Source: an uncultured Bifidobacteriaceae bacterium
Lineage (GTDB): Bacteria; Bacteroidota; Bacteroidia; UKL13-3
Direction of reading: 5' to 3'
NCBI GenBank assembly: GCA_964535575.1
Contig: CAZHTC010000003.1
Location: 112,640-176,639 of the forward strand
Length of the DNA stretch: 64,000 bases
Part shown: positions 43,233 through 53,384 of the stretch, one piece after another
Position numbering within the stretch: the first letter of the stretch is position 1
Layout of the letters: every line of letters starts with the position of its first letter
Notes under the pieces: model-generated
Database searches by the model: none
What the model was told of the DNA's origin: nothing
The model's input: the letters and a program-made list of their open reading frames with translations, nothing else
Program-made: the position numbers and the translations under genes

Positions 43233-43337
43233 ACCGGGCAAAGATAGGTTTTAACCCTTATGCGATGAAACAGAAAACAAAGAATATTTATGCCACTTGT
43301 TTCGTTCTATAAATAATAATATTGAAGCCCTTGTGGT

Positions 43338-43697
43338 CTATTCGTCTTTCTTTAAATCCCTGAACTGATGCTTTACCTTATGCCACCACTCCATGCCGTG
43401 GGTTTGTTTAAGGTAACTTATCATGGTTTTATTATAGATATTGATGCCGTTGTTCTCGCCTATAGAAGGAATTTTGCCCGTTTTTTCAAAGGTAAAACCA
43501 AAGGCTTTGGCAAGAGAATCCCTTCCGGTATCGGCAGGCGGATTACCAAATTCAATTATCCGTATCTTACCTTTATCCTGATCTATCATTGCAGTAATGT
43601 AATTGTACCGGCAAAAAAAGCCAAGGTAGTAGGCCATATACCCAAATACCCCCAAAATAATAATGGTGATAAAATGAGCGGGCTTTATTTTATTCAT
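43338..43697 (-). CDS. Hypothetical membrane-anchored protein
   Basis: Single N-terminal transmembrane helix. No recognisable motif. Confidence 0.35.
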   Translation of the reverse strand: MNKIKPAHFITIIILGVFGYMAYYLGFFCRYNYITAMIDQDKGKIRIIEFGNPPADTGRDSLAKAFGFTFEKTGKIPSIGENNGINIYNKTMISYLKQTHGMEWWHKVKHQFRDLKKDE

Positions 43698-44347
43698 ATG
43701 AAGTAATTATTCAGGTCAAAGTAACATACTTTTTTTCAAATTGCGACAGTTACTCCTATATATATAAGGTAAAACAGCAGTTTTTCATTGCTGATTCTGC
43801 GGGTTTCACTCCGAAATACCTTTGTTCTGGGTGTATTTTCATTGCAGAAGTTGAATCCTGACCCGTTTTTCCCTGTCGATAACTGGTGTTTTTAGAGGGA
43901 AAAGAGGGTTTTTAAAGAAAAAAACAACTTTTTTTAGTTGGGCGTATAGGCTGTTGCCAATGAAAATTCTGCGCGGTAAAGCGAATTTACCAATGAAAAA
44001 AATATGCAGACAAAATATGCAGAAATAAGTTTTTACGAAAGAATCGTTTGCGTATTATCAATTCGCTGAAACTATTGAAAACACAGGCTTCTTCAAGGAT
44101 TTGCAAAAAGGCTATTGTTTGTTTGTTTTCGCAATTCATCAATGGAAAAACAGGCTAAAAAATCACATTTAGCAGGGAAAATAGCCTTAATTAAACCAAT
44201 TCTCATTGGATATTGCAATAGGGGAGTGTACGATTTTAATAACATTTATTTTAAGAAATGTGGAAACTGTTTTGTTGCAACCGCTATGAAATTTGCAATG
44301 AAGATGTATTTTTGACTATCAGATCAACTGAATAAAAGTTTAAACCC

Positions 44348-44746
44348 ATGGCAAAAAAAGTAGTAAAAGCAAAAAAAGCTGCTAAAAAAGCAGCTCCAAA
44401 AAAGGCTGCTAAAAAAGCAGCTCCAAAAAAGGCTGCTAAAAAAGCGGCTCCAAAGAAAGCAGCTAAGAAAGCAGCTCCTAAAAAGAAAACTGCAAGAAAA
44501 CCAAACGCAGCTTTCATGGCTCCATTAACTCCAAGCGCTACGCTTGCTGATGTAATCGGAACCAAAGCCCTTCCAAGGACTGAGATCGTTAAACAAATTT
44601 GGAACTACATTAAGAAAAACGGTCTTCAGGACAAGAAGAACAGAAGAATGATTAATGCCGATGCAAAACTGAAAGTTCTTTTCGGTGGCAAAGGACAGAT
44701 TTCTATGTTCGAGCTTGCTAAGATTGTTTCTAAGCATGTAAAGTAA
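44348..44746 (+). CDS. Histone-H1-like Lys/Ala-rich protein fused to a SWIB/MDM2 domain
   Basis: The N-terminus has (AAKKAAPKK)x4. The C-terminus VKQIWNYIKKNGLQDKKNRRMINADAKLKVLFG is a SWIB fold. Confidence 0.8.
   Translation: MAKKVVKAKKAAKKAAPKKAAKKAAPKKAAKKAAPKKAAKKAAPKKKTARKPNAAFMAPLTPSATLADVIGTKALPRTEIVKQIWNYIKKNGLQDKKNRRMINADAKLKVLFGGKGQISMFELAKIVSKHVK
44372..44479 (+). repeat. Four tandem 27-nt coding repeats (aaaaaggctgctaaaaaagcagctcca) inside the H1-like gene
   Basis: Directly visible. Copies 1-3 are near-identical and copy 4 is diverged. Confidence 0.9.
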
Positions 44747-44765
44747 TTTAGCATTTCATGCAATA

Positions 44766-44796
44766 AAGAGAGGGCAGCAATGCCCTTTCTTTATTT
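44766..44796 (+). terminator. Putative terminator after the H1-like gene
   Basis: agagggca-gcaa-tgcccttt imperfect hairpin followed by CTTTATTT. Confidence 0.4.
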
Positions 44797-44840
44797 ACAG
44801 CGATTTCTATAACCGGGATAATACCTATCTTTACTGCTTC

Positions 44841-45515
44841 ATGAATTTTATTGCGCATTATCATTTTACTCATAAACCCGGCAATGCTTACCATAATCTG
44901 GGTATAGTTTTGCCCGACCTTACCCGTAATTTTATTCCCTCAAAGCGAATTAAACCCGAAACGCTGCGCAGCATATTGGAATTAGATGCTCATCACCAGC
45001 TGAACGAAGGGGCAAGGCAGCATTATGCCCTCGACCGATTTTTCCATAATTCGCCCTTTTTTATAAATGGATATACTTTTGTCAAAAACTGTACAGCGAA
45101 TGCTCAATTTGATGATACCTTCAGCAGGTACTTTTTCCTGAACCATATTTTTCTGGAATTAATGCTCGACCGATACATTATAAGTCGGCACACGCCATCT
45201 ATTGATGGGTTTTATCAGTCTTTAACAGAGGTAGAGAGCGAAGTTTTGGGAAGCTATCTTGATTTGAACGGTATAGAAACCAAAGAATTATTTCTTGAAC
45301 GCTTTCATCAATTCAGGGAAATACGATATTTGTATCATTACACCGATAATGAAAAGCTGATTTATTCGTTAAACCGGATAATGATGCAGGTGGGGCTTTA
45401 CGGACTTAGTGCCAATAATCAGCAACAGTTATTACCGTGTATTGCAGAGACAGAATTATGGATTGATTCAGAATTTCCTTCTTTGCTGCAGCAATTCAGT
45501 GAACATAATTTATAA
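44841..45515 (+). CDS. Acyl carrier protein phosphodiesterase-like (AcpH family)
   Basis: The N-terminus MNFIAHYHFTHKPG resembles E. coli AcpH MNFLAHLHLAH. The size is similar. Confidence 0.5.
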   Translation: MNFIAHYHFTHKPGNAYHNLGIVLPDLTRNFIPSKRIKPETLRSILELDAHHQLNEGARQHYALDRFFHNSPFFINGYTFVKNCTANAQFDDTFSRYFFLNHIFLELMLDRYIISRHTPSIDGFYQSLTEVESEVLGSYLDLNGIETKELFLERFHQFREIRYLYHYTDNEKLIYSLNRIMMQVGLYGLSANNQQQLLPCIAETELWIDSEFPSLLQQFSEHNL

Positions 45516-46600
45516 TGAAGAAAAATATTTTTGCCTTTGTTTTACTGCTTACCGCCCATTGGGCTTACAGCCAAAAGTACAGCAATGAGTTTATGAATAT
45601 AGGAGTGGGTGCAAGGGCTTTTGGGATGGGCGGGGCGGTTATAGCCACCACAAACGATGTAACTTCCGGCTACTGGAATCCGGCCGGGTTGTTACAAATA
45701 ACAGACAATATGCAATTATCCCTGATGCATGCCGAGTATTTTGCCGGTATTGCCAATTATGATTACGGGGCCATCGGATTTAAAAACGGAGATAAAAGCG
45801 CTATGGGATTTTCTATTGTGCGCTTTGGGATAGATGATATCCCCAATACCATCGACTTATATAAAAACGGACAGATTAATTACAACAATATTAAAAGTTT
45901 TTCGGCTGTTGATTATGCCTTTATGGGATCATATGCCCGCAAAACCAAAATAGAAGGATTGATATTGGCAGGGAATGCCAAAATTATCAGACGTAAGGTT
46001 GGATCTTTTGCCAGTGCCTGGGGCTTTGGGCTCGATTTTGGGGCACAGTACACCCGCAAGAAATGGCATTTTGGCGCCATGCTGCGCGATGTAACTTCTA
46101 CTTTTAATGCCTGGACTTACACGTTTACCAATGACGAGAAACAGGTACTTCAGGCTACGGGCAATGCCATTCCTTCCAATACACTTGAAGTAACCCGCCC
46201 GCGCATTATACTTGCTGCCGGAAGGAAATTTGAAGTTTATAAAAAAATTAGCTGTCTGGCAGAAACCAATTTCAATTTTACCACCGATGGGCAGCGGAAT
46301 GTTTTGGTGAGCAGTACCATCTTTAATATGGATGCTGTGGCCGGAGTAGAATTTGCCTGGGACAATTTTGTTTTTTTACGCGGGGGAGCAAGTAATTTTC
46401 AGCACCAAACCGATATTAACGGGAAGCGGAGATTGCACTTTCAGCCCAGCGTGGGAGCAGGTTTGCGCTTTAAGGGCCTCACTATCGATTACGCATTTAC
46501 CACCATCACCGGGCAATCATCGGCCTTGTATTCCAATATATTCTCTCTTAAACTGGGCATCAATAAATCGGCTGCCCCTGCAACGAACACGGCACAGTAA
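45515..46600 (+). CDS. FadL/TodX-family outer-membrane beta-barrel protein (PorV-like)
   Basis: Signal peptide. NEFMNIGVGARAFGMGGAVIATTNDVTSGYWNPAGL parallels the FadL N-terminus [31 protein letters not shown]. The protein ends ...FSLKLGINKSAAPATNTAQ, with a barrel-type terminal strand FSLKLGI preceding a short tail. Confidence 0.5.
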   Translation: MKKNIFAFVLLLTAHWAYSQKYSNEFMNIGVGARAFGMGGAVIATTNDVTSGYWNPAGLLQITDNMQLSLMHAEYFAGIANYDYGAIGFKNGDKSAMGFSIVRFGIDDIPNTIDLYKNGQINYNNIKSFSAVDYAFMGSYARKTKIEGLILAGNAKIIRRKVGSFASAWGFGLDFGAQYTRKKWHFGAMLRDVTSTFNAWTYTFTNDEKQVLQATGNAIPSNTLEVTRPRIILAAGRKFEVYKKISCLAETNFNFTTDGQRNVLVSSTIFNMDAVAGVEFAWDNFVFLRGGASNFQHQTDINGKRRLHFQPSVGAGLRFKGLTIDYAFTTITGQSSALYSNIFSLKLGINKSAAPATNTAQ

Positions 46601-46621
46601 TCTTTCGTATATTTGCCCCTT

Positions 46622-47575
46622 ATGAAGATTGTTGACATCATCCGTAACAGTAAAGGAACTGAGTTTTCATTTGAAATTTTACCTCCTCTTAAAGGGAAGG
46701 GGATTAAATCTATTTTTGAAGGGATTGACCCATTGATGGAGTTTAATCCGCGCTTTATAGATGTAACCTATCATCGGGAAGAGTATGTGCTTCGCAAAAG
46801 GGCTGACGGTGGGTTTGATAAGGTTTCAACCCGTAAGCGTCCGGGAACGGTAGCTATTTGTGCGGCTATTATGAATAAGTACAAGGTAGAAGCGGTGCCG
46901 CACCTTATTTGCGGAGGATTTACCAAAGAAGAAACCGAAAACGCCTTGATTGATTTAAACTTTTTGGGTATTCAAAATGTGTTGTTATTGCGGGGCGACA
47001 GCATTAAATCGGAGCCCAATTTTGTACCCGAACCTGACGGAAACCGCAATTCCCTTGATTTAATTCATCAGGTAGTGAACCTTAATAACGGCATTTACCT
47101 CGATGATGAACTTGCCGGTGCTAATGCTACCGATTTTTGTATTGGGGTGGCTGCTTACCCCGAAAAACATTTTGAAGCACCCAATATGCTCTCCGATTTG
47201 AATTTTTTAAAACGTAAGGCAGAATCAGGAGCTAATTACATCGTAACTCAGATGTTTTTTAATAACAGCAAATTTTTTGAGTTTACCGAACAATGCAAAA
47301 AAATGGGGATTAATATTCCGATTATTCCGGGTATAAAACCAATTACCAAAAAAAATCAGCTCACTGTTTTGCCTAAAATTTTCCATATTGATATTCCATT
47401 CGAACTATCGGATGCAATAGAGAAATGCAAGGATGATAAAGCGGTTCGTCAGGTAGGAATTGAATGGGCAATTCAGCAATCCAAAGAGCTAAAGGATGCA
47501 GGAGTGCCGGTATTGCATTATTATACTATGGGATTGAGCGAGGCTACCAAACAAATTGTAACCGCAGTTTTTTAA
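46622..47575 (+). CDS. metF: 5,10-methylenetetrahydrofolate reductase
   Basis: FSFEILPP...FIDVTYH...PHLIC...LLLRGD...AAYPEKH...GANYIVTQMFF...IIPGI is collinear with MetF. An alternative ATG lies at 46613. Confidence 0.9.
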   Translation: MKIVDIIRNSKGTEFSFEILPPLKGKGIKSIFEGIDPLMEFNPRFIDVTYHREEYVLRKRADGGFDKVSTRKRPGTVAICAAIMNKYKVEAVPHLICGGFTKEETENALIDLNFLGIQNVLLLRGDSIKSEPNFVPEPDGNRNSLDLIHQVVNLNNGIYLDDELAGANATDFCIGVAAYPEKHFEAPNMLSDLNFLKRKAESGANYIVTQMFFNNSKFFEFTEQCKKMGINIPIIPGIKPITKKNQLTVLPKIFHIDIPFELSDAIEKCKDDKAVRQVGIEWAIQQSKELKDAGVPVLHYYTMGLSEATKQIVTAVF

Positions 47576-47605
47576 CAGAATCAATCAAGCAGTAATGCAT
47601 ATATC

Positions 47606-48862
47606 ATGAAACGATTTTTACTGCTTCTTTTCAGTATTTCATGGGTGAGCTTAAAAGCCAATTATGTTTTTATTCCCATGGACGAAAGCCAGAAAAATCA
47701 TTTAAAATCATATGGTGTGGCTTATTGGGTGCTGGGTAAAGATGCTGAGGTGGAGTGGTTGCTTAATTACAGGGGCGGCAGTTTCGCTTTTATTTATACT
47801 CCCACTTTCGAGAAGGAATGTCTGGTGCGTGGCATAACTTATCAGGTAATAAATGATAGTAAAATGCAAAGCATTCGCAATGAAATTGCCCTTCCTGAAG
47901 TAAATATGGAAGTAGTAAAATTGCAAAAGGCTCCCAAAATTGCCGTGTATTCCCCAAAAACCAAACAACCCTGGGACGATGCCGTTACCCTGGTACTTAC
48001 CTATGCCGAAATTCCGTACGAAGTGGTTTTTGATGATGAAGTGCTGAGTGGCAAGCTACCCACTTACGATTGGCTTCATCTCCATCACGAGGATTTTACC
48101 GGGCAATATGGAAAATTCTGGAGTGCCTTTCAAAATGCGGCCTGGTATAAAGCCGAAGTGCGTGAATCGGAAAACATGGCAGCCAAATATGGGTTTGCCA
48201 AGGTATCGGAAATGAAATTGGCCGTAGCCAAAAAAATTAAAGAGTATACCATAGGCGGAGGTTTTTTGTTTGCCATGTGTTCGGCAACCGACACCTATGA
48301 TATTTCACTTGCAGCTGATGGAACGGATATTTGCGATGTGCCTTTTGATAACGATCCACCCGACCCGAATGCGCTGGGTAAATTAAACTACGATAATTGT
48401 TTTGCCTTTAAAAATTTTGCCATCACCACCAATCCGTATGAGTACGAACATTCCAATATTGACATGACTTACCAGCGGGGAATGGTGGGAGAGGAGAATG
48501 ATATGTTTGTTTTATTTGATTTCTCGGCCAAGTGGGATGTGGTGCCCACCATGCTTTGTCAGGATCATACCCGGGTGGTAAAAGGATTTATGGGGCAAAC
48601 CACTTCTTTCAATAAAAAAACAATTAAAAGCGAGGTGCTCATTATGGGAGAAAATAAAGGATTAGGCGAGGCTCGTTACATTCACGGTACTTACGGCAAA
48701 GGCACCTGGACTTTTTTTGGCGGCCACGATCCAGAGGATTATGAACATCGGGTGGGCGAACCCCCAACCGATTTGGCATTGCATCCAAACTCTCCCGGTT
48801 ACAGATTAATTCTGAATAATATTTTGTTCCCTTCGGCAAAAAAGAAAAAGCTGAAAACCTAA
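47606..48862 (+). CDS. Secreted hypothetical protein
   Basis: Signal peptide, 418 aa. No confident motif, though a class-I glutamine-amidotransferase-like fold is possible. Confidence 0.35.
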   Translation: MKRFLLLLFSISWVSLKANYVFIPMDESQKNHLKSYGVAYWVLGKDAEVEWLLNYRGGSFAFIYTPTFEKECLVRGITYQVINDSKMQSIRNEIALPEVNMEVVKLQKAPKIAVYSPKTKQPWDDAVTLVLTYAEIPYEVVFDDEVLSGKLPTYDWLHLHHEDFTGQYGKFWSAFQNAAWYKAEVRESENMAAKYGFAKVSEMKLAVAKKIKEYTIGGGFLFAMCSATDTYDISLAADGTDICDVPFDNDPPDPNALGKLNYDNCFAFKNFAITTNPYEYEHSNIDMTYQRGMVGEENDMFVLFDFSAKWDVVPTMLCQDHTRVVKGFMGQTTSFNKKTIKSEVLIMGENKGLGEARYIHGTYGKGTWTFFGGHDPEDYEHRVGEPPTDLALHPNSPGYRLILNNILFPSAKKKKLKT

Positions 48863-50754
48863 TCAAACATCCTCCATCGAATTCCCAAACGGAAGGAACG
48901 ATAGGGCAAAGGTTGGTGAGGGCTGCTGTAAGAGTTGTTCCCGCTTAAATCGGCATTTGCATGATCAAATTTAAAAAACAGGATGGCCCGTTTTAACTGC
49001 ATATTGAAAAACACATCTACAATGGGGTAATTTCCGGTTTTTACTGAATTTTGTAATTGAAACTGCCGGGTAACCGGATTAAATTCTTTAGCATAATAAG
49101 CCGTAAAAAATGAAACATCTACGCCAAGCTGAGCCAGTAATACTTTTTTAAACAAGCGTTTTTCATAATAGAACCGTTCAAAAATTCCAAACTCGGGTAA
49201 ACGCATCACCTCTTTATTGTCGGTGTGCTGATACCAAAGCTGGTTGTGCAAAAAGAAATGGCCGAATTGAAAACTTTTGGCAAGTGAAATCCCTATAATT
49301 TGTACTGCTTTAGCCGATTGGAATGGCAATGCGGTAGTATCAAAATAAACTAAACGGTTGAGTGAAGTGAGTGAGCCACTCAGTTTCCATCCGCTCTTTT
49401 TTTGTTCAGAAACAGTTGCCGATAAATGCATGGTTTGGGTTTTCTTAAACTGATTGTCCCAAACATAATGATTCGATAAAAAGTGATTGGTTAAGTAATC
49501 CTGTTCTTTTTGCTGAAAGAGTGTATTCAGGGAGAATAAGAATTTACTGAGGTTGTAATATAGAACAGGATTAACATAATAATCTCCCTTATTGTACCCG
49601 GTGAGGCAATACGATGCATCGATAGAAGGGAAAAATTTGCCCGGCACCGTGTTTAACCACGGAAGAATACTCACGGCTGCTAGTACATTATTTATTTTTA
49701 CATTATTTACCCGCTGGGCAATTTCAATGTATTGGTGCCTTAACGTGAAATAGGAAGTGTATTTTTCGCTGATAGAATCTTTAGTGAACAACCCTTTAAA
49801 CAACGTTACACTATTTTGCAGCATAAACTGGTGTAGCGAATCGTACGTTTGAGTTGTATCGAAATAAAAGGCCGGATAGAAATCTTTATTCAGCAAATTT
49901 TTGTCTTTGTACAAAAAGGAAAATCGCTCTACATCTACCGTGTGTTTAATACCTGCCCGTTGTGTAAATTGCTTTGAAGTATCATTTCCGATTATTATGG
50001 TCCGGTATTTCCCAAAGTACCAGTATTGGGCTAGGTGAAAAGAGGTATTGCGAAATAAGTTTCTCGGGCCCCCGCTGCCATCAGTGCCGTTTCCCAGCAG
50101 GTTTACGCCCACCTGTTTGTTGGCTCCGGATAATGCCTCGTATGAGGAATCCTGAATAAGGCCTCCGTTCATTTCTGCATATCCCTTGTTCCAGATAAGG
50201 CTATTGAGCAGTACATACCGTTCGTTTTTCGATTCGTAGCTGCTGAACACCCTGGTGCTCCATATGCTCGTCTTTTGATTTACGTAATAACCCAGTGAGC
50301 TTATTCTTCTGAAATCAACACCAATATTCCAGCGTTTTGAAACATTTTTGGTAAGTAACAAATCAAGAAATAACAATTCTTTACTTCCCTGAACATACTG
50401 TATATCGGTATAAGGTTTTTGGGCTTTATAAAAACGGGTATCTTCACTGCGTTTGTAGTACTGTTGCATGGCACCGGTACCCAATTGAAAACCATTATCG
50501 GCAGTTGGATTAAAAAGGAGTGGTTGCGCAGGCGAACCAATATTGCCAAGGTCCTGATACAGCCGGTATTTCTTTACCATCGGGTTGTAAAGTTCGGCTT
50601 CAAACAGTGATGTGTCTATACTGCGATGCCGGAACCCGGTTAAGAAGTCGTGTTCCATTTTGTACTGTGGGGCAGCCCGGCCCGATAAACTGTCTTGAGC
50701 CAGCACAGGTGCTGCACTCAGGAAAAAGATAAAAAGAAGGGTAACTAAACGCAT
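48859..50754 (-). CDS. Putative outer-membrane porin-like beta-barrel protein
   Basis: Signal peptide. 631 aa, rich in Y/N/F with alternating strands. It ends in Phe (RWRMFD-like barrel closure). Confidence 0.4.
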   Translation of the reverse strand: MRLVTLLFIFFLSAAPVLAQDSLSGRAAPQYKMEHDFLTGFRHRSIDTSLFEAELYNPMVKKYRLYQDLGNIGSPAQPLLFNPTADNGFQLGTGAMQQYYKRSEDTRFYKAQKPYTDIQYVQGSKELLFLDLLLTKNVSKRWNIGVDFRRISSLGYYVNQKTSIWSTRVFSSYESKNERYVLLNSLIWNKGYAEMNGGLIQDSSYEALSGANKQVGVNLLGNGTDGSGGPRNLFRNTSFHLAQYWYFGKYRTIIIGNDTSKQFTQRAGIKHTVDVERFSFLYKDKNLLNKDFYPAFYFDTTQTYDSLHQFMLQNSVTLFKGLFTKDSISEKYTSYFTLRHQYIEIAQRVNNVKINNVLAAVSILPWLNTVPGKFFPSIDASYCLTGYNKGDYYVNPVLYYNLSKFLFSLNTLFQQKEQDYLTNHFLSNHYVWDNQFKKTQTMHLSATVSEQKKSGWKLSGSLTSLNRLVYFDTTALPFQSAKAVQIIGISLAKSFQFGHFFLHNQLWYQHTDNKEVMRLPEFGIFERFYYEKRLFKKVLLAQLGVDVSFFTAYYAKEFNPVTRQFQLQNSVKTGNYPIVDVFFNMQLKRAILFFKFDHANADLSGNNSYSSPHQPLPYRSFRLGIRWRMFD

Positions 50755-50797
50755 GCCTTTACCGCAAATATGCTGATAAAGGCTGAGACCAGAAAAT

Positions 50798-52156
50798 CTA
50801 ACGCTTGAGGAGTTTCAGTGTTTGGCTTCCGTTTTCATTCTCAATACGTAAAAAATAAAACCCGGAAGAAAGGAAATCTAATAGAAGCTCACTTTGGACA
50901 GGTAATTCATAAGCCGACCGATAAACTACCTGTCCGGAAATATTGGATATGGAAACAAACGAAGGGTAATTGCTGACAAGTGTTATTTGGCTGGTAAAAG
51001 GATTGGGAAATACTGAAGCAGTTTGCGTTTTTACTTTAGCCACAGCCGTATTGGTATCAACTTTAAGAATGAATAAACCATTGGCCATATCTGATGCCAG
51101 CACATTTCCCGATGGCAGGTAAGGATATACTCCCCAACAACCGAAAAGGCCACTGTAATCTCCGTTATTGTTGTAGGTATCAAACCATGCAGCTGCTTTT
51201 ACCGAATCGGGGTTGCTTACATCAAATGCATATACTCCATCGTGGTAATACGAAACCCAAAGAAACGGGAAGGTAAAATATGGCTTGTGCGCTACGGCCG
51301 GTGTTGACGAACGAAATATATCGGTTATTGAAAGATTGGTTACACCTTTTATGGCAGCCAGTTTTACTCCGCTCCCCGAACTTTCATCGGTAAAACTTAA
51401 CAGGCGGTGCACCGGGTCGAAAGCAGCTGAGTGATTAAATCCTTTTTCAGGGTAATCGGCCAGGGCTTTTATTAAAACCGGAGCCGATGCATTCTGGTAG
51501 TTAAAAATATAAAGTCCGCTGGTTCCGGTGCTGCAATAAAGCGTATCCCGCCATGAAAACGCATAATGTACAAAAGTAAATGATGATGGCGGAGGAGTAA
51601 GGTTACCCAGCCATTGGGGAACTTCGGGGTTGCCAAGTGAAAGTACTGTGGCGGCATACATAACCACCTGATTCAGGTCATTGTCCATTCGCTCGGTATT
51701 GCACAGGTAAAGTCTTTTCGAAAAAGTATCGATACACAGGGTATGTGCGCGAATACAGAGGCTGTCATGATCGTAAACTTTGTGAACCGAATCGGGGAGG
51801 TATTGCAAATCAAAAATCTGAAGTGAAGAATTTCCCTGTCCGGCTGCAGCATATGCATAATGACCGAACGTAACTATATCCCTGTTTCGGCAACCAGCCA
51901 TTTTGCCTGCTTCAGCATCGCATACCACCGGAGCAGTTGGGTTAGTTACATCAATAAAATAAACCGAATCGATGCTGCAAAGCAGGGCATATTCTTTATG
52001 TTTCACTTCATCGTAGTAGCCATAAACTTCGTTGTACTGTTGGTTGCCCTGCACATTCAGGTTATCATTATCCCATCGGGCCAGTTGCACCATTCTAAAC
52101 GATGACTGCCCGAAGAGGCCAAAAGGAATCAACAGAAGTACCCAAACCCGAATCAC
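50798..52156 (-). CDS. LVIVD-repeat (choice-of-anchor-B-like) beta-propeller protein with a T9SS C-terminal domain
   Basis: Repeated motifs ...SLQIFDL, ...VVMYAAT, ...GVYAFDVSNP, ...GLFILKVD. The C-terminal CTD reads SGFYFLRIENENGSQTLKLLKR. GTG start. Confidence 0.5.
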   Translation of the reverse strand: MIRVWVLLLIPFGLFGQSSFRMVQLARWDNDNLNVQGNQQYNEVYGYYDEVKHKEYALLCSIDSVYFIDVTNPTAPVVCDAEAGKMAGCRNRDIVTFGHYAYAAAGQGNSSLQIFDLQYLPDSVHKVYDHDSLCIRAHTLCIDTFSKRLYLCNTERMDNDLNQVVMYAATVLSLGNPEVPQWLGNLTPPPSSFTFVHYAFSWRDTLYCSTGTSGLYIFNYQNASAPVLIKALADYPEKGFNHSAAFDPVHRLLSFTDESSGSGVKLAAIKGVTNLSITDIFRSSTPAVAHKPYFTFPFLWVSYYHDGVYAFDVSNPDSVKAAAWFDTYNNNGDYSGLFGCWGVYPYLPSGNVLASDMANGLFILKVDTNTAVAKVKTQTASVFPNPFTSQITLVSNYPSFVSISNISGQVVYRSAYELPVQSELLLDFLSSGFYFLRIENENGSQTLKLLKR

Positions 52157-52317
52157 TACACTAAGGTACGGAATTTTTCAGGAACTGCAGTGCAGCATGA
52201 CTGAAACAATTTTTAATGACTGATGAATTACGTTGGTTCCGGATTTTAAACGGTTATTTTTTATGTAAAAAATTGTTGTGCGAAGTATTAAATCTTTTCG
52301 CACATTTGCACCCGCTT

Positions 52318-52719
52318 ATGTTATACGTTAAAAAATCAAAGATACCTAAATCGGGCAAGGGCCTTTTCACTGATGCTCTTATTAAACGCGGGGAGATAGT
52401 TTGTGAGTATGAGGGCGAAAAACTCACTTGGAAAGAATGTGAGGCACGCAATGCAACTATGCCCGGCAAACAGAAGGGCGCTTACTATTTTTTCATCAAC
52501 AATAAAAATTGTGTGGATGCCGCTGCGGCAATTGATACTTTTGGTCGCTATGCCAATGATGCTGCCGGGCCAAGCCGTATTTCGGGGATACGTAATAATG
52601 CCCGTTATGAAGTGATAAAAGGCAAACCCTATATTGTTGCGAGCCGCACCATTAGGCCGGGAGAAGAAATTCTGGTTGGTTACGGAAAGGATTACTGGGA
52701 AACCATGCTCGAAAATTAA
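52318..52719 (+). CDS. SET-domain protein (putative protein-lysine methyltransferase)
   Basis: KSGKGLFTDALIKRGEIVCEYEGEKLT is the SET N-region with a GxG-like start. GRYANDAAGPS sits in the NHS position. GEEILVGYGKDYW resembles the GEELT-DY C-terminal motif. The start was chosen at the internal ATG at 52318. Confidence 0.55.
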   Translation: MLYVKKSKIPKSGKGLFTDALIKRGEIVCEYEGEKLTWKECEARNATMPGKQKGAYYFFINNKNCVDAAAAIDTFGRYANDAAGPSRISGIRNNARYEVIKGKPYIVASRTIRPGEEILVGYGKDYWETMLEN

Positions 52720-53384
52720 TTTCCGCTTAGGGAAATTTTCCGGCACGCTATTAATTGGGTTCCTGCCGACACCCGTACAATATACACTCCGTTAAACAAC
52801 AGAGTTAAATCAATTACCTGCGTTCCACGGTCAAGGGCTGCCTCAAAAACCCTGCGTCCGGTGAGGTCGAAAACCTGAACCGTAGCGGCTGGTGTATTGG
52901 GTTGAATAATTAGTTTGTTTCCTGCCTGTACAAACCCGTTGATTGATGCAATGGCAGGTGCCGAAACTCCGGCTGCAATATTACAAACCAGTTCAAACGT
53001 CACGGTATCGGCATGTTCAGGATCTCCAACGGCATAAATGCGGTATTTTATTATTGAAGTTCCTTCTATTTTATTGGTGAGCGTATGTATTTTAATAAAT
53101 GCCTCTTCGTTTATCTGTAGGTTTTTCCATTCGCCTGAATCCGGCAGGCCGGGCATGCAATTTCCGTTATTGCAAAAATTAAGTTCCCAACCCGGATAAA
53201 TGGTTTCACTTAATTTTTGCCATTTTACATTTACCGGCAGGGTAGTATTGTTTTTATAGTAAATGGGCACATCATTAAATACCCCCGGAATCACATCATG
53301 TTTTACTTTCCCATACGGAAAACTAAGACTTTGCGCCTGAACCATGCTTGTGAGGGCGATAAAAATGAAGAGTACCTTTTTCAT
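52716..53384 (-). CDS. Small secreted protein with a T9SS C-terminal domain
   Basis: Signal peptide. The C-terminal region FNGVYIVRVSAGTQLIACRKISL is CTD-like. Confidence 0.45.
   Translation of the reverse strand: MKKVLFIFIALTSMVQAQSLSFPYGKVKHDVIPGVFNDVPIYYKNNTTLPVNVKWQKLSETIYPGWELNFCNNGNCMPGLPDSGEWKNLQINEEAFIKIHTLTNKIEGTSIIKYRIYAVGDPEHADTVTFELVCNIAAGVSAPAIASINGFVQAGNKLIIQPNTPAATVQVFDLTGRRVFEAALDRGTQVIDLTLLFNGVYIVRVSAGTQLIACRKISLSGN

Follow-up and report, generated by a model that had tools for sequence, protein, structure and literature searches.

Does the occurrence of a histone-like protein and a putative protein lysine methyltransferase in one bacterial gene neighbourhood reflect a working pair, or two genes that happen to lie near each other? 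The question is raised by a 64,000-nucleotide stretch of contig CAZHTC010000003.1 (GenBank assembly GCA_964535575.1, positions 112,640 to 176,639; hereafter the window). It carries a gene for a 132-residue protein with a lysine- and alanine-rich tail and a SWIB/MDM2 domain (the SWIB protein) and, further along the same strand, a gene for a 133-residue stand-alone SET-domain protein (the SET protein; Table 1). A first-pass annotation of the sequence had taken this co-location, together with a precedent from Chlamydia, as a sign that the SET protein methylates the SWIB protein. The domain assignments hold, but the proposed link does not follow from the gene order. The reading that we consider most probable, and hold with reasonable confidence, is that these are two independent genes sharing a neighbourhood by historical accident, one encoding a nucleoid-type SWIB protein and the other an unlinked SET methyltransferase.

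The local arrangement gives no indication of a shared transcript. The stop codon of the SWIB gene and the start of the SET gene are 7.6 kb apart, and the interval contains six unrelated genes on both strands, encoding a 224-residue protein, PorV2, MTHFR, a 418-residue protein, a Porin_10 protein, and a type IX secretion system (T9SS) cargo protein. Directly after the SWIB stop codon lies a terminator-like hairpin with a predicted folding energy of −23.6 kcal/mol (z-score −5.7; 0 of 200 shuffled sequences folded as well), which a terminator scan also detected on the minus strand. Upstream, the gene is preceded by a 650-bp spacer (43698-44347) with a G+C content of 33%, as compared with 41% for the window. 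The AT-rich spacer before the SWIB gene and the terminator-like hairpin after it indicate that the gene forms its own transcription unit.

Comparison across species likewise fails to support a conserved association. One genome per species was scanned for the SET gene, yielding 534 stretches, and the best 80 loci were retrieved together with flanks of at most 10 kb per side, which came to 1.18 Mb (the upstream flank reached 8.5 kb or more in 47 loci and the downstream flank in 53). A SWIB gene was found by tblastn within 10 kb of SET in only two of these 80 loci, L011 and L012, whose SET proteins are 99% and 95% identical, respectively, to that of the window and thus represent the same lineage. 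By chance alone, 17 kb of a genome of ~3.25 Mb would be expected to include the gene in ~0.5% of genomes, or ~0.4 times among 80 loci, as against the one lineage observed; the genome size used (~3.2 Mb) derives from two complete chromosomes among the SET scan matches.

The next relatives, L013 and L015 (SET 76-77% identical to that of the window), retain the block comprising tyrS, the 224-residue protein gene, PorV2, MTHFR, the 418-residue protein gene, Porin_10, the T9SS cargo gene, and SET, and the conserved order continues past SET into genes for a 222-residue T9SS protein and an M1 peptidase. Neither a SWIB gene nor the FEKKY-domain gene that accompanies it in the window occurs in the tyrS-to-SET block of L013 or L015. 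A spacer of ~75 bp takes the place of the window's segment in both relatives; in L013, tyrS (start ~607) and the 224-residue protein gene (start 682) are ~75 bp apart, versus 1.6 kb in the window (43242-44840). The SET block therefore does not need an adjacent SWIB gene. The segment containing the FEKKY-domain gene, the spacer, and SWIB was either gained in the lineage of the window or lost in that of its sisters.

The SWIB gene, in turn, is found elsewhere without SET. Three further contexts, with SWIB domains 85-93% identical to that of the window, place it beside histidine-biosynthesis genes, beside a metallophosphatase gene, and between SprB-type and PorP/SprF genes, and no SET gene occurs within 10 kb in any of the three. 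The commonest neighbour of SET is an exonuclease III-like (Exo_endo_phos-type) gene, located directly upstream on the opposite strand in 38 of 80 species at a median distance of 95 bp; in the window this gene is missing, and the T9SS cargo gene occupies its place. After it, the genes most often seen nearby encode a cyclophilin, a 3-hydroxyacyl-CoA dehydrogenase, and a DUF5686 protein. Among the 80 loci, SET has no conserved neighbour of chromatin type. The exonuclease III-like gene was itself considered as a conserved SET partner and set aside, being absent from the window and not a chromatin protein.

Neither co-transcription nor proximity across divergent genomes, either of which would mark a functional gene pair, was found for SWIB and SET. 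An operon or neighbourhood link was rejected on the strength of the SWIB terminator and separate transcription units, the six intervening genes, the two occurrences in 80 loci, and the sister blocks that lack SWIB; the inference that co-location signals methylation of one product by the other finds no backing in these genome comparisons. Judged from gene order, the proximity of SWIB and SET appears to be a recent rearrangement of one lineage that carries no functional information.

The SWIB protein itself is as the first-pass annotation described it, in that the open reading frame (ORF), the repeat analysis, and the Pfam match all agree on a 132-residue product with a tail of four 27-nt units. 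Its translation begins with MAKKVVKAKKAAKKAAPKKAAKKAAPKK, and the predicted protein is small (14.2 kDa) and very basic (pI 11), with 23 Lys, 19 Ala, and 4 Pro among the first 51 residues. Tandem Repeats Finder recovered an array with a 27-nt period (88% matches, 0 indels, score 183) encoding (AAKKAAPKK)x4. Residues 59-131 match PF02201 over profile positions 2-74 of 74 (E 1.1e-27; 96.1 bits, cut-off 25). Structure prediction with AlphaFold2, using 35 homologues, divides the protein in the same way: residues 1-55 have predicted local distance difference test (pLDDT) values of 46-54 and lack secondary structure, and residues 59-132 exceed 90 and are mostly helical with short strands. Among solved structures, yeast UAF30 comes closest through its SWIB region (E 1e-11), and solved Arabidopsis SWIB structures also match by sequence.

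NCBI lists an identical protein (P0001) as a SWIB/MDM2 domain-containing protein, and this protein recurs with identical gene order in metagenome-assembled genomes (MAGs) that carry the label Bacteroidia bacterium and derive from activated sludge and comparable sources; these MAGs confirm the earlier assignment of the DNA to the Bacteroidota. The description of the tail as that of a eukaryote-like histone H1 was correct as to its Lys/Ala-rich composition, but it does not extend to family membership. Matches to PF07382 (HC2; 16.8 bits, cut-off 40) and to NF038053 (a Burkholderia H1-like family; 17.7 bits, cut-off 80) fall below threshold, and Pfam and NCBIfam scans returned no linker-histone globular domain (PF00538) in the protein. 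The label "H1-like" describes a composition rich in Lys, Ala, and Pro, and not homology.

Codon comparisons show that the SWIB gene is under purifying selection, with 11 synonymous and 0 non-synonymous changes relative to L001 and 21 and 1, respectively, relative to L012. This small protein is under unusually tight constraint. Relative to L001, its coding sequence (44348-44746) has 97% nucleotide identity and no amino-acid changes; the spacer upstream is 84% identical, and PorV2 is 90% identical with 18 non-synonymous changes.

Two fusion families connect the protein with DNA. The C-terminal lysine-rich and SWIB module of PRK14724, a topoisomerase III family, aligns with residues 4-131 (E 2e-29), and the corresponding module of PRK06319, a topoisomerase I/SWIB fusion, also aligns (E 1e-19; both NCBIfam). 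Since essentially the whole protein aligns with a topoisomerase C-terminal module, the module is tied to DNA transactions. Together with the family-wide tail, purifying selection, and analogues in the literature, these alignments lead us to infer a DNA-associated role for the SWIB protein.

A search with the SWIB protein returned more than 6,800 database clusters at E <0.001, among at most 8,000 candidates considered. The best 120 of these are all proteins of 115-166 residues with the same architecture, from Chitinophagaceae, Paraflavitalea, Gynurincola, Chryseolinea, and unnamed Bacteroidia. Across 115 homologues, the tail spans 32-84 residues (median 47), with a median combined content of Lys, Ala, and Pro of 94%, and contains from 3 to ~8 repeats of the AAKKAAPKK unit. 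As the lysine-rich tail is common to the homologues, it is a selected, family-wide feature rather than a local oddity. The best reading of these comparisons is that the SWIB protein is a typical representative of a large group of putative lysine-rich SWIB nucleoid proteins in the Bacteroidota.

The number of repeats varies between strains, as the first-pass annotation had predicted when it proposed a comparison of copy number. A database protein (P0003) is the same as the SWIB protein except in having three units instead of four (123 residues), and at the DNA level the locus L091 (GCA_020849055.1) lacks exactly 27 nt of the window sequence, in frame, with the flanks otherwise identical in the aligned region. 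Three contigs of different origin carry the 3-copy allele, and nine carry the 4-copy allele. Collapse of the ~116-nt array during short-read assembly is a possible cause of the 3-copy allele, but not the likeliest one.

Bacterial SWIB domains have been described from Chlamydiae, Verrucomicrobia, and some Proteobacteria (PMC6426960), or treated as essentially chlamydial, in contrast with the abundance of the family in Bacteroidota. Our literature search found no paper on either the Bacteroidota SWIB family or the Bacteroidota SET family. The closest characterised analogue of the architecture, going by summaries of the original work, appears to be the plant plastid protein SWIB-4 of Arabidopsis and spinach, which has a mass of ~12 kDa, a pI of ~10, and an H1 motif beside its SWIB domain, and which is reported there to bind DNA, to compact nucleoids, and to rescue an E. 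coli hns mutant by complementation (work of Melonek 2012, described in PMC4154389 and PMC4758235). The window protein shares with it a small size, a high basicity, and a lysine-rich motif adjoining a single SWIB domain; the resemblance is one of architecture and does not imply homology of the tails. Compared by description, SWIB-4 differs in being eukaryotic, nuclear-encoded, and organelle-targeted, whereas the tail of the window protein is an N-terminal, regular 9-residue tandem repeat.

Among bacterial proteins, the comparison is with chlamydial CT460 and Wcw_0377 and with the topoisomerase fusions (CT643, PRK06319; PRK14724), with whose module the window protein aligns. Wcw_0377, the SWIB-only protein of Waddlia, binds heparin and gives chromatin immunoprecipitation sequencing peaks along the whole genome (PMC6426960). 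Relative to this group of chlamydial SWIB proteins and topoisomerase fusions, the window protein differs in standing alone, in having a long repeat tail, and in coming from a free-living member of the Bacteroidota. Its tail resembles the C-terminal domain of H1, as do Hc1, Hc2, and the Burkholderia H1-like proteins, in being rich in Lys, Ala, and Pro, repetitive, and of low complexity; it differs from the Hc2 and Burkholderia families in the sub-threshold scores and the lack of a detected globular domain described above. Repeat number also varies in Hc2.

Turning to the second gene, the ORF as listed (52216-52719) encodes 167 residues when counted from its first ATG. In 32 homologues, however, the internal sequence MLYVKKS is the start of the protein or the point at which the alignment begins (alignment A1), and in a related MAG the gene is annotated at 133 residues. 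These homologue starts and the annotation in the related MAG identify the 133-residue form as the real SET gene, in agreement with the first-pass annotation. The in-frame upstream ATG accounts for an extension (52216-52317) that is not conserved. Longer forms of 147 (P0121) and 148 residues (P0122) also exist in the database, reflecting inconsistent annotation of start codons.

The first-pass annotation had named failure to match PF00856 as one ground for refuting its proposal; the protein matches this profile over its full length (positions 1-105 of 105; E 5.8e-13; 49.6 bits, cut-off 22.4). The AlphaFold2 model has a mean pLDDT of 88.6 and a predicted template modelling (TM) score of 0.81, and its top Foldseek match is human SETD8 (TM score 0.69-0.72, E 2e-9). 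A profile of the family searched against the PDB identified EZH2 and SETD8 (E 1e-12), as well as MLL, SETD7, and Legionella LegAS4. An affinity with PR/PRDM-type domains, considered on account of the RYANDA motif and a sub-threshold match to PF21549 (22.8 bits, cut-off 27), was not supported: canonical SET enzymes rank ahead in the search with the family profile. Changes at synonymous and non-synonymous sites number 32 and 1 relative to L001 and 43 and 7 relative to L012, and the SET gene is under purifying selection.

Residues G13, G15, Y31, R77-Y78-A79-N80-D81-A82, E117, V120, Y122, Y126, and W127 are invariant in 33 homologues. In the alignment with SETD8, G13 and G15 correspond to the GRG motif, Y31 to the Tyr of EYHG, N80 to the Asn of NHS, and Y122 to the second Tyr of YDYG, which belongs to the pseudoknot-forming motif (ELxF/YDY); the glycine motif and two active-site tyrosines are invariant in the family. 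At the position of the first Tyr of YDYG, which we take to be the Phe/Tyr-switch position (Y334), the SET protein has Val, and the PDB titles among the Foldseek matches include Y334F and Y245F as multiplicity mutants. Judging by these residues, the enzyme is probably active and perhaps adds more than one methyl group. In its minimal form, with little beyond the catalytic core and with the GxG motif and active-site tyrosines conserved, the protein resembles the core of SETD8/KMT5A, Go1-SET, and cpnSET/NUE, and likewise viral vSET. Unlike these minimal enzymes, the window family has RYANDA in place of (R/x)xxNH(S/x)C, in addition to Val at the switch position.

Pfam and NCBIfam scans found neither a T9SS C-terminal sorting domain nor a signal peptide in the SET protein, and its N-terminus (MLYVKKSKIPKSGKGLF) has no hydrophobic stretch. 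The lack of a sorting domain and of a hydrophobic N-terminus make the protein likely to be cytoplasmic. Extensions of 18-42 residues are present at the C-terminus in 32 of 118 homologues (P0121-P0240), and the window protein is without one. Many of these extensions contain lysine runs such as KKKKKKTNKTKSSKKKNK or KPKKKKPAGKKKVKKAKKK. Their composition hints at association with nucleic acid, equally of DNA or of ribosome and RNA, or may provide automethylation sites.

Against this background, methylation of the lysines of the SWIB protein's H1-like tail by the SET protein, tuning DNA binding as a bacterial chromatin-modification pair, seems unlikely to us. Both genes are intact and conserved in one genome, 23 of 51 tail residues are lysines, lysine-rich tails occur on some SET homologues, and an enzyme without a match to a signal peptide or T9SS sorting domain is expected to have a cytoplasmic substrate. 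There is also precedent elsewhere: as summarised in a review (PMC3980110), archaeal Go1-SET methylates the chromatin protein MC1-alpha, and for C. pneumoniae cpnSET, yeast two-hybrid assays showed interaction with both Hc1 and Hc2, of which Hc1 was also methylated by the enzyme (Murata 2007). The chlamydial case is weaker than the first-pass annotation held, however. NUE was described as a type III secreted effector that targets host histones (Pennini et al., PMC2904774), at odds with Murata 2007, and the results on Hc1 methylation have been called discordant (PMC6426960). At the locus itself, SWIB is not near SET in 78 of 80 loci, the block persists in L013 and L015 although SWIB is absent from it, the two genes are separate transcription units, and SWIB orthologues stand in other contexts without SET; no evidence of an operon, a fusion, or co-variation turned up, in an analysis without a dedicated search for fusions or for co-occurrence at the genome level. 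What speaks for methylation of the tail by SET is its general plausibility and a precedent that is itself disputed; nothing in this locus adds to them. A fuller version, in which a free-living member of the Bacteroidota would carry a eukaryote-like chromatin mark, with repeat number and methylation of the repeat tail of an abundant H1-like/SWIB nucleoid protein jointly tuning nucleoid compaction, we regard as quite unlikely; if true, it would give linker-histone methylation a counterpart among non-pathogenic bacteria.

Eukaryotic SET enzymes with ribosomal substrates are established, and the SET protein could instead modify some other basic cytoplasmic protein, such as a ribosomal protein or translation factor, in the manner of yeast Rkm1-4 or plant LSMT-type enzymes, with the nucleoid uninvolved. 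The lack of any chromatin-type gene conserved beside SET speaks for such a role. Nothing positive points to any particular substrate of this kind, however, and lysine-rich SET tails would suit ribosome or RNA association and DNA association equally; this alternative is improbable at much the level of the fuller chromatin proposal. It is highly improbable that the SET protein is an exported effector directed at histones in a eukaryotic host or grazer, on the pattern of NUE in Chlamydia, RomA/LegAS4 in Legionella, or BaSET in Bacillus, and methylates them there. LegAS4 appears among the PDB profile matches, and NCBIfam returns a weak match to Legionella AnkI/LegAS4 (E 2e-7; 30 bits, cut-off 550), but this match spans the shared SET fold only. 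Unlike NUE, the window protein has no secretion signal: it comprises a 133-residue catalytic core, with no N-terminal hydrophobic signal and no T9SS sorting domain, though neighbouring genes encode one. Its homologues come from MAGs of free-living freshwater and activated-sludge bacteria.

Some points weigh against the preferred reading of two independent genes. Enzymes that act in trans need no linkage, so the lack of synteny is compatible with SET acting on SWIB, and the lysine-rich extensions of SET homologues hint at a fit with a nucleoid substrate. The invariant replacement of His by Asp at the NH(S/x)C position (RYANDA) leaves some doubt as to cofactor binding. DNA binding and a nucleoid role for the SWIB protein, and enzymatic activity for the SET protein, are what we infer from sequence.

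Under the reading of two independent genes, the disordered (AAKKAAPKK)n tail would bind DNA non-specifically by charge, as with the C-terminal tail of linker histone H1, the tails of mycobacterial HupB, and chlamydial Hc2. The SWIB domain may supply a second contact, either as a protein-protein cleft or as a further contact with DNA, and tail and domain together would form a nucleoid-associated architectural protein. Strains would differ in tail length, and hence in charge, through slippage or recombination within the 27-nt array. The SET protein would work in the cytoplasm as an S-adenosylmethionine-dependent protein lysine methyltransferase, modifying its substrate in trans. Their 7.6-kb proximity would go back to an event of this lineage alone that placed the FEKKY and SWIB segment between tyrS and the gene that follows.

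Both proteins are already domain-annotated in public MAGs, and it is a coincidence of position that suggested a link between them. A lysine-rich nucleoid protein of the same cell is an inexpensive candidate substrate to try for the cytoplasmic SET enzyme of a free-living bacterium, but this genome gives no special reason to favour the SWIB protein. The more worthwhile lead is not the SWIB-SET pair but the widespread Bacteroidota lysine/alanine-repeat SWIB family, which is very common in free-living members, uncharacterised, and may plausibly supply a major nucleoid protein across the phylum.

Table 1. Positions of the SWIB and SET genes and associated features in the window (position 1 is its first nucleotide).
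Feature	Position	Strand	Basis
SWIB gene, 132-residue product: Lys/Ala-rich tail, then SWIB/MDM2 domain	44348..44746	+	ORF, PF02201 match
27-nt tandem repeat, 4.3 copies, encoding (AAKKAAPKK)n; polymorphic copy number	44370..44485	+	Tandem Repeats Finder
Predicted disordered polycationic tail, coding region, residues 1-55	44348..44512	+	AlphaFold2 pLDDT, composition
Folded SWIB/MDM2 domain, coding region, residues 59-131	44522..44740	+	Pfam, AlphaFold2
Terminator-like 15-bp hairpin with A and T runs on either side, right after the SWIB stop	44762..44795	+	RNA fold
SET gene, 133-residue stand-alone SET-domain protein, pI 9.2	52318..52719	+	PF00856, homologue starts
Lineage-specific segment, tyrS to 224-residue protein gene: FEKKY gene, spacer, SWIB, terminator	43242..44840	.	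Missing in L013, L015
FEKKY-domain gene, 119 residues, N-terminal hydrophobic segment	43338-43697	-	NF052319, E 1e-9

The FEKKY-domain gene adjoins SWIB in the window and is missing together with it from L013 and L015; in other genomes it does not lie beside SWIB. Many genes of the region 45515-53384 serve the outer membrane or type IX secretion, including those for PorV2 (NF052325, E 4e-141), Porin_10, a choice-of-anchor-B cargo protein, and the 222-residue T9SS-tailed protein. The 418-residue protein (47606-48862) has no Pfam or NCBIfam family match. No other lysine-rich or chromatin-like ORFs were found in the 64-kb window. No Rfam family reached its gathering score and no tRNA was detected in the window, the 650-bp spacer included. 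A scan for sigma-70 promoters, the consensus of which is unsuited to Bacteroidota, gave fewer sites than shuffled sequence.

Within the spacer upstream of SWIB is a perfect 13-nt direct repeat, AAAATATGCAGAC, present in 1.9 copies (43999-44023). The long spacers upstream of SWIB in different contexts contain no conserved sequence beyond close relatives. Such spacers (650-700 bp, 29-36% G+C) precede SWIB in three unrelated contexts, namely the window, L096 (9320-10000), and L097 (9305-10000), with no detectable similarity to each other. In a fourth context, L094, the upstream spacer is only 125 bp long.

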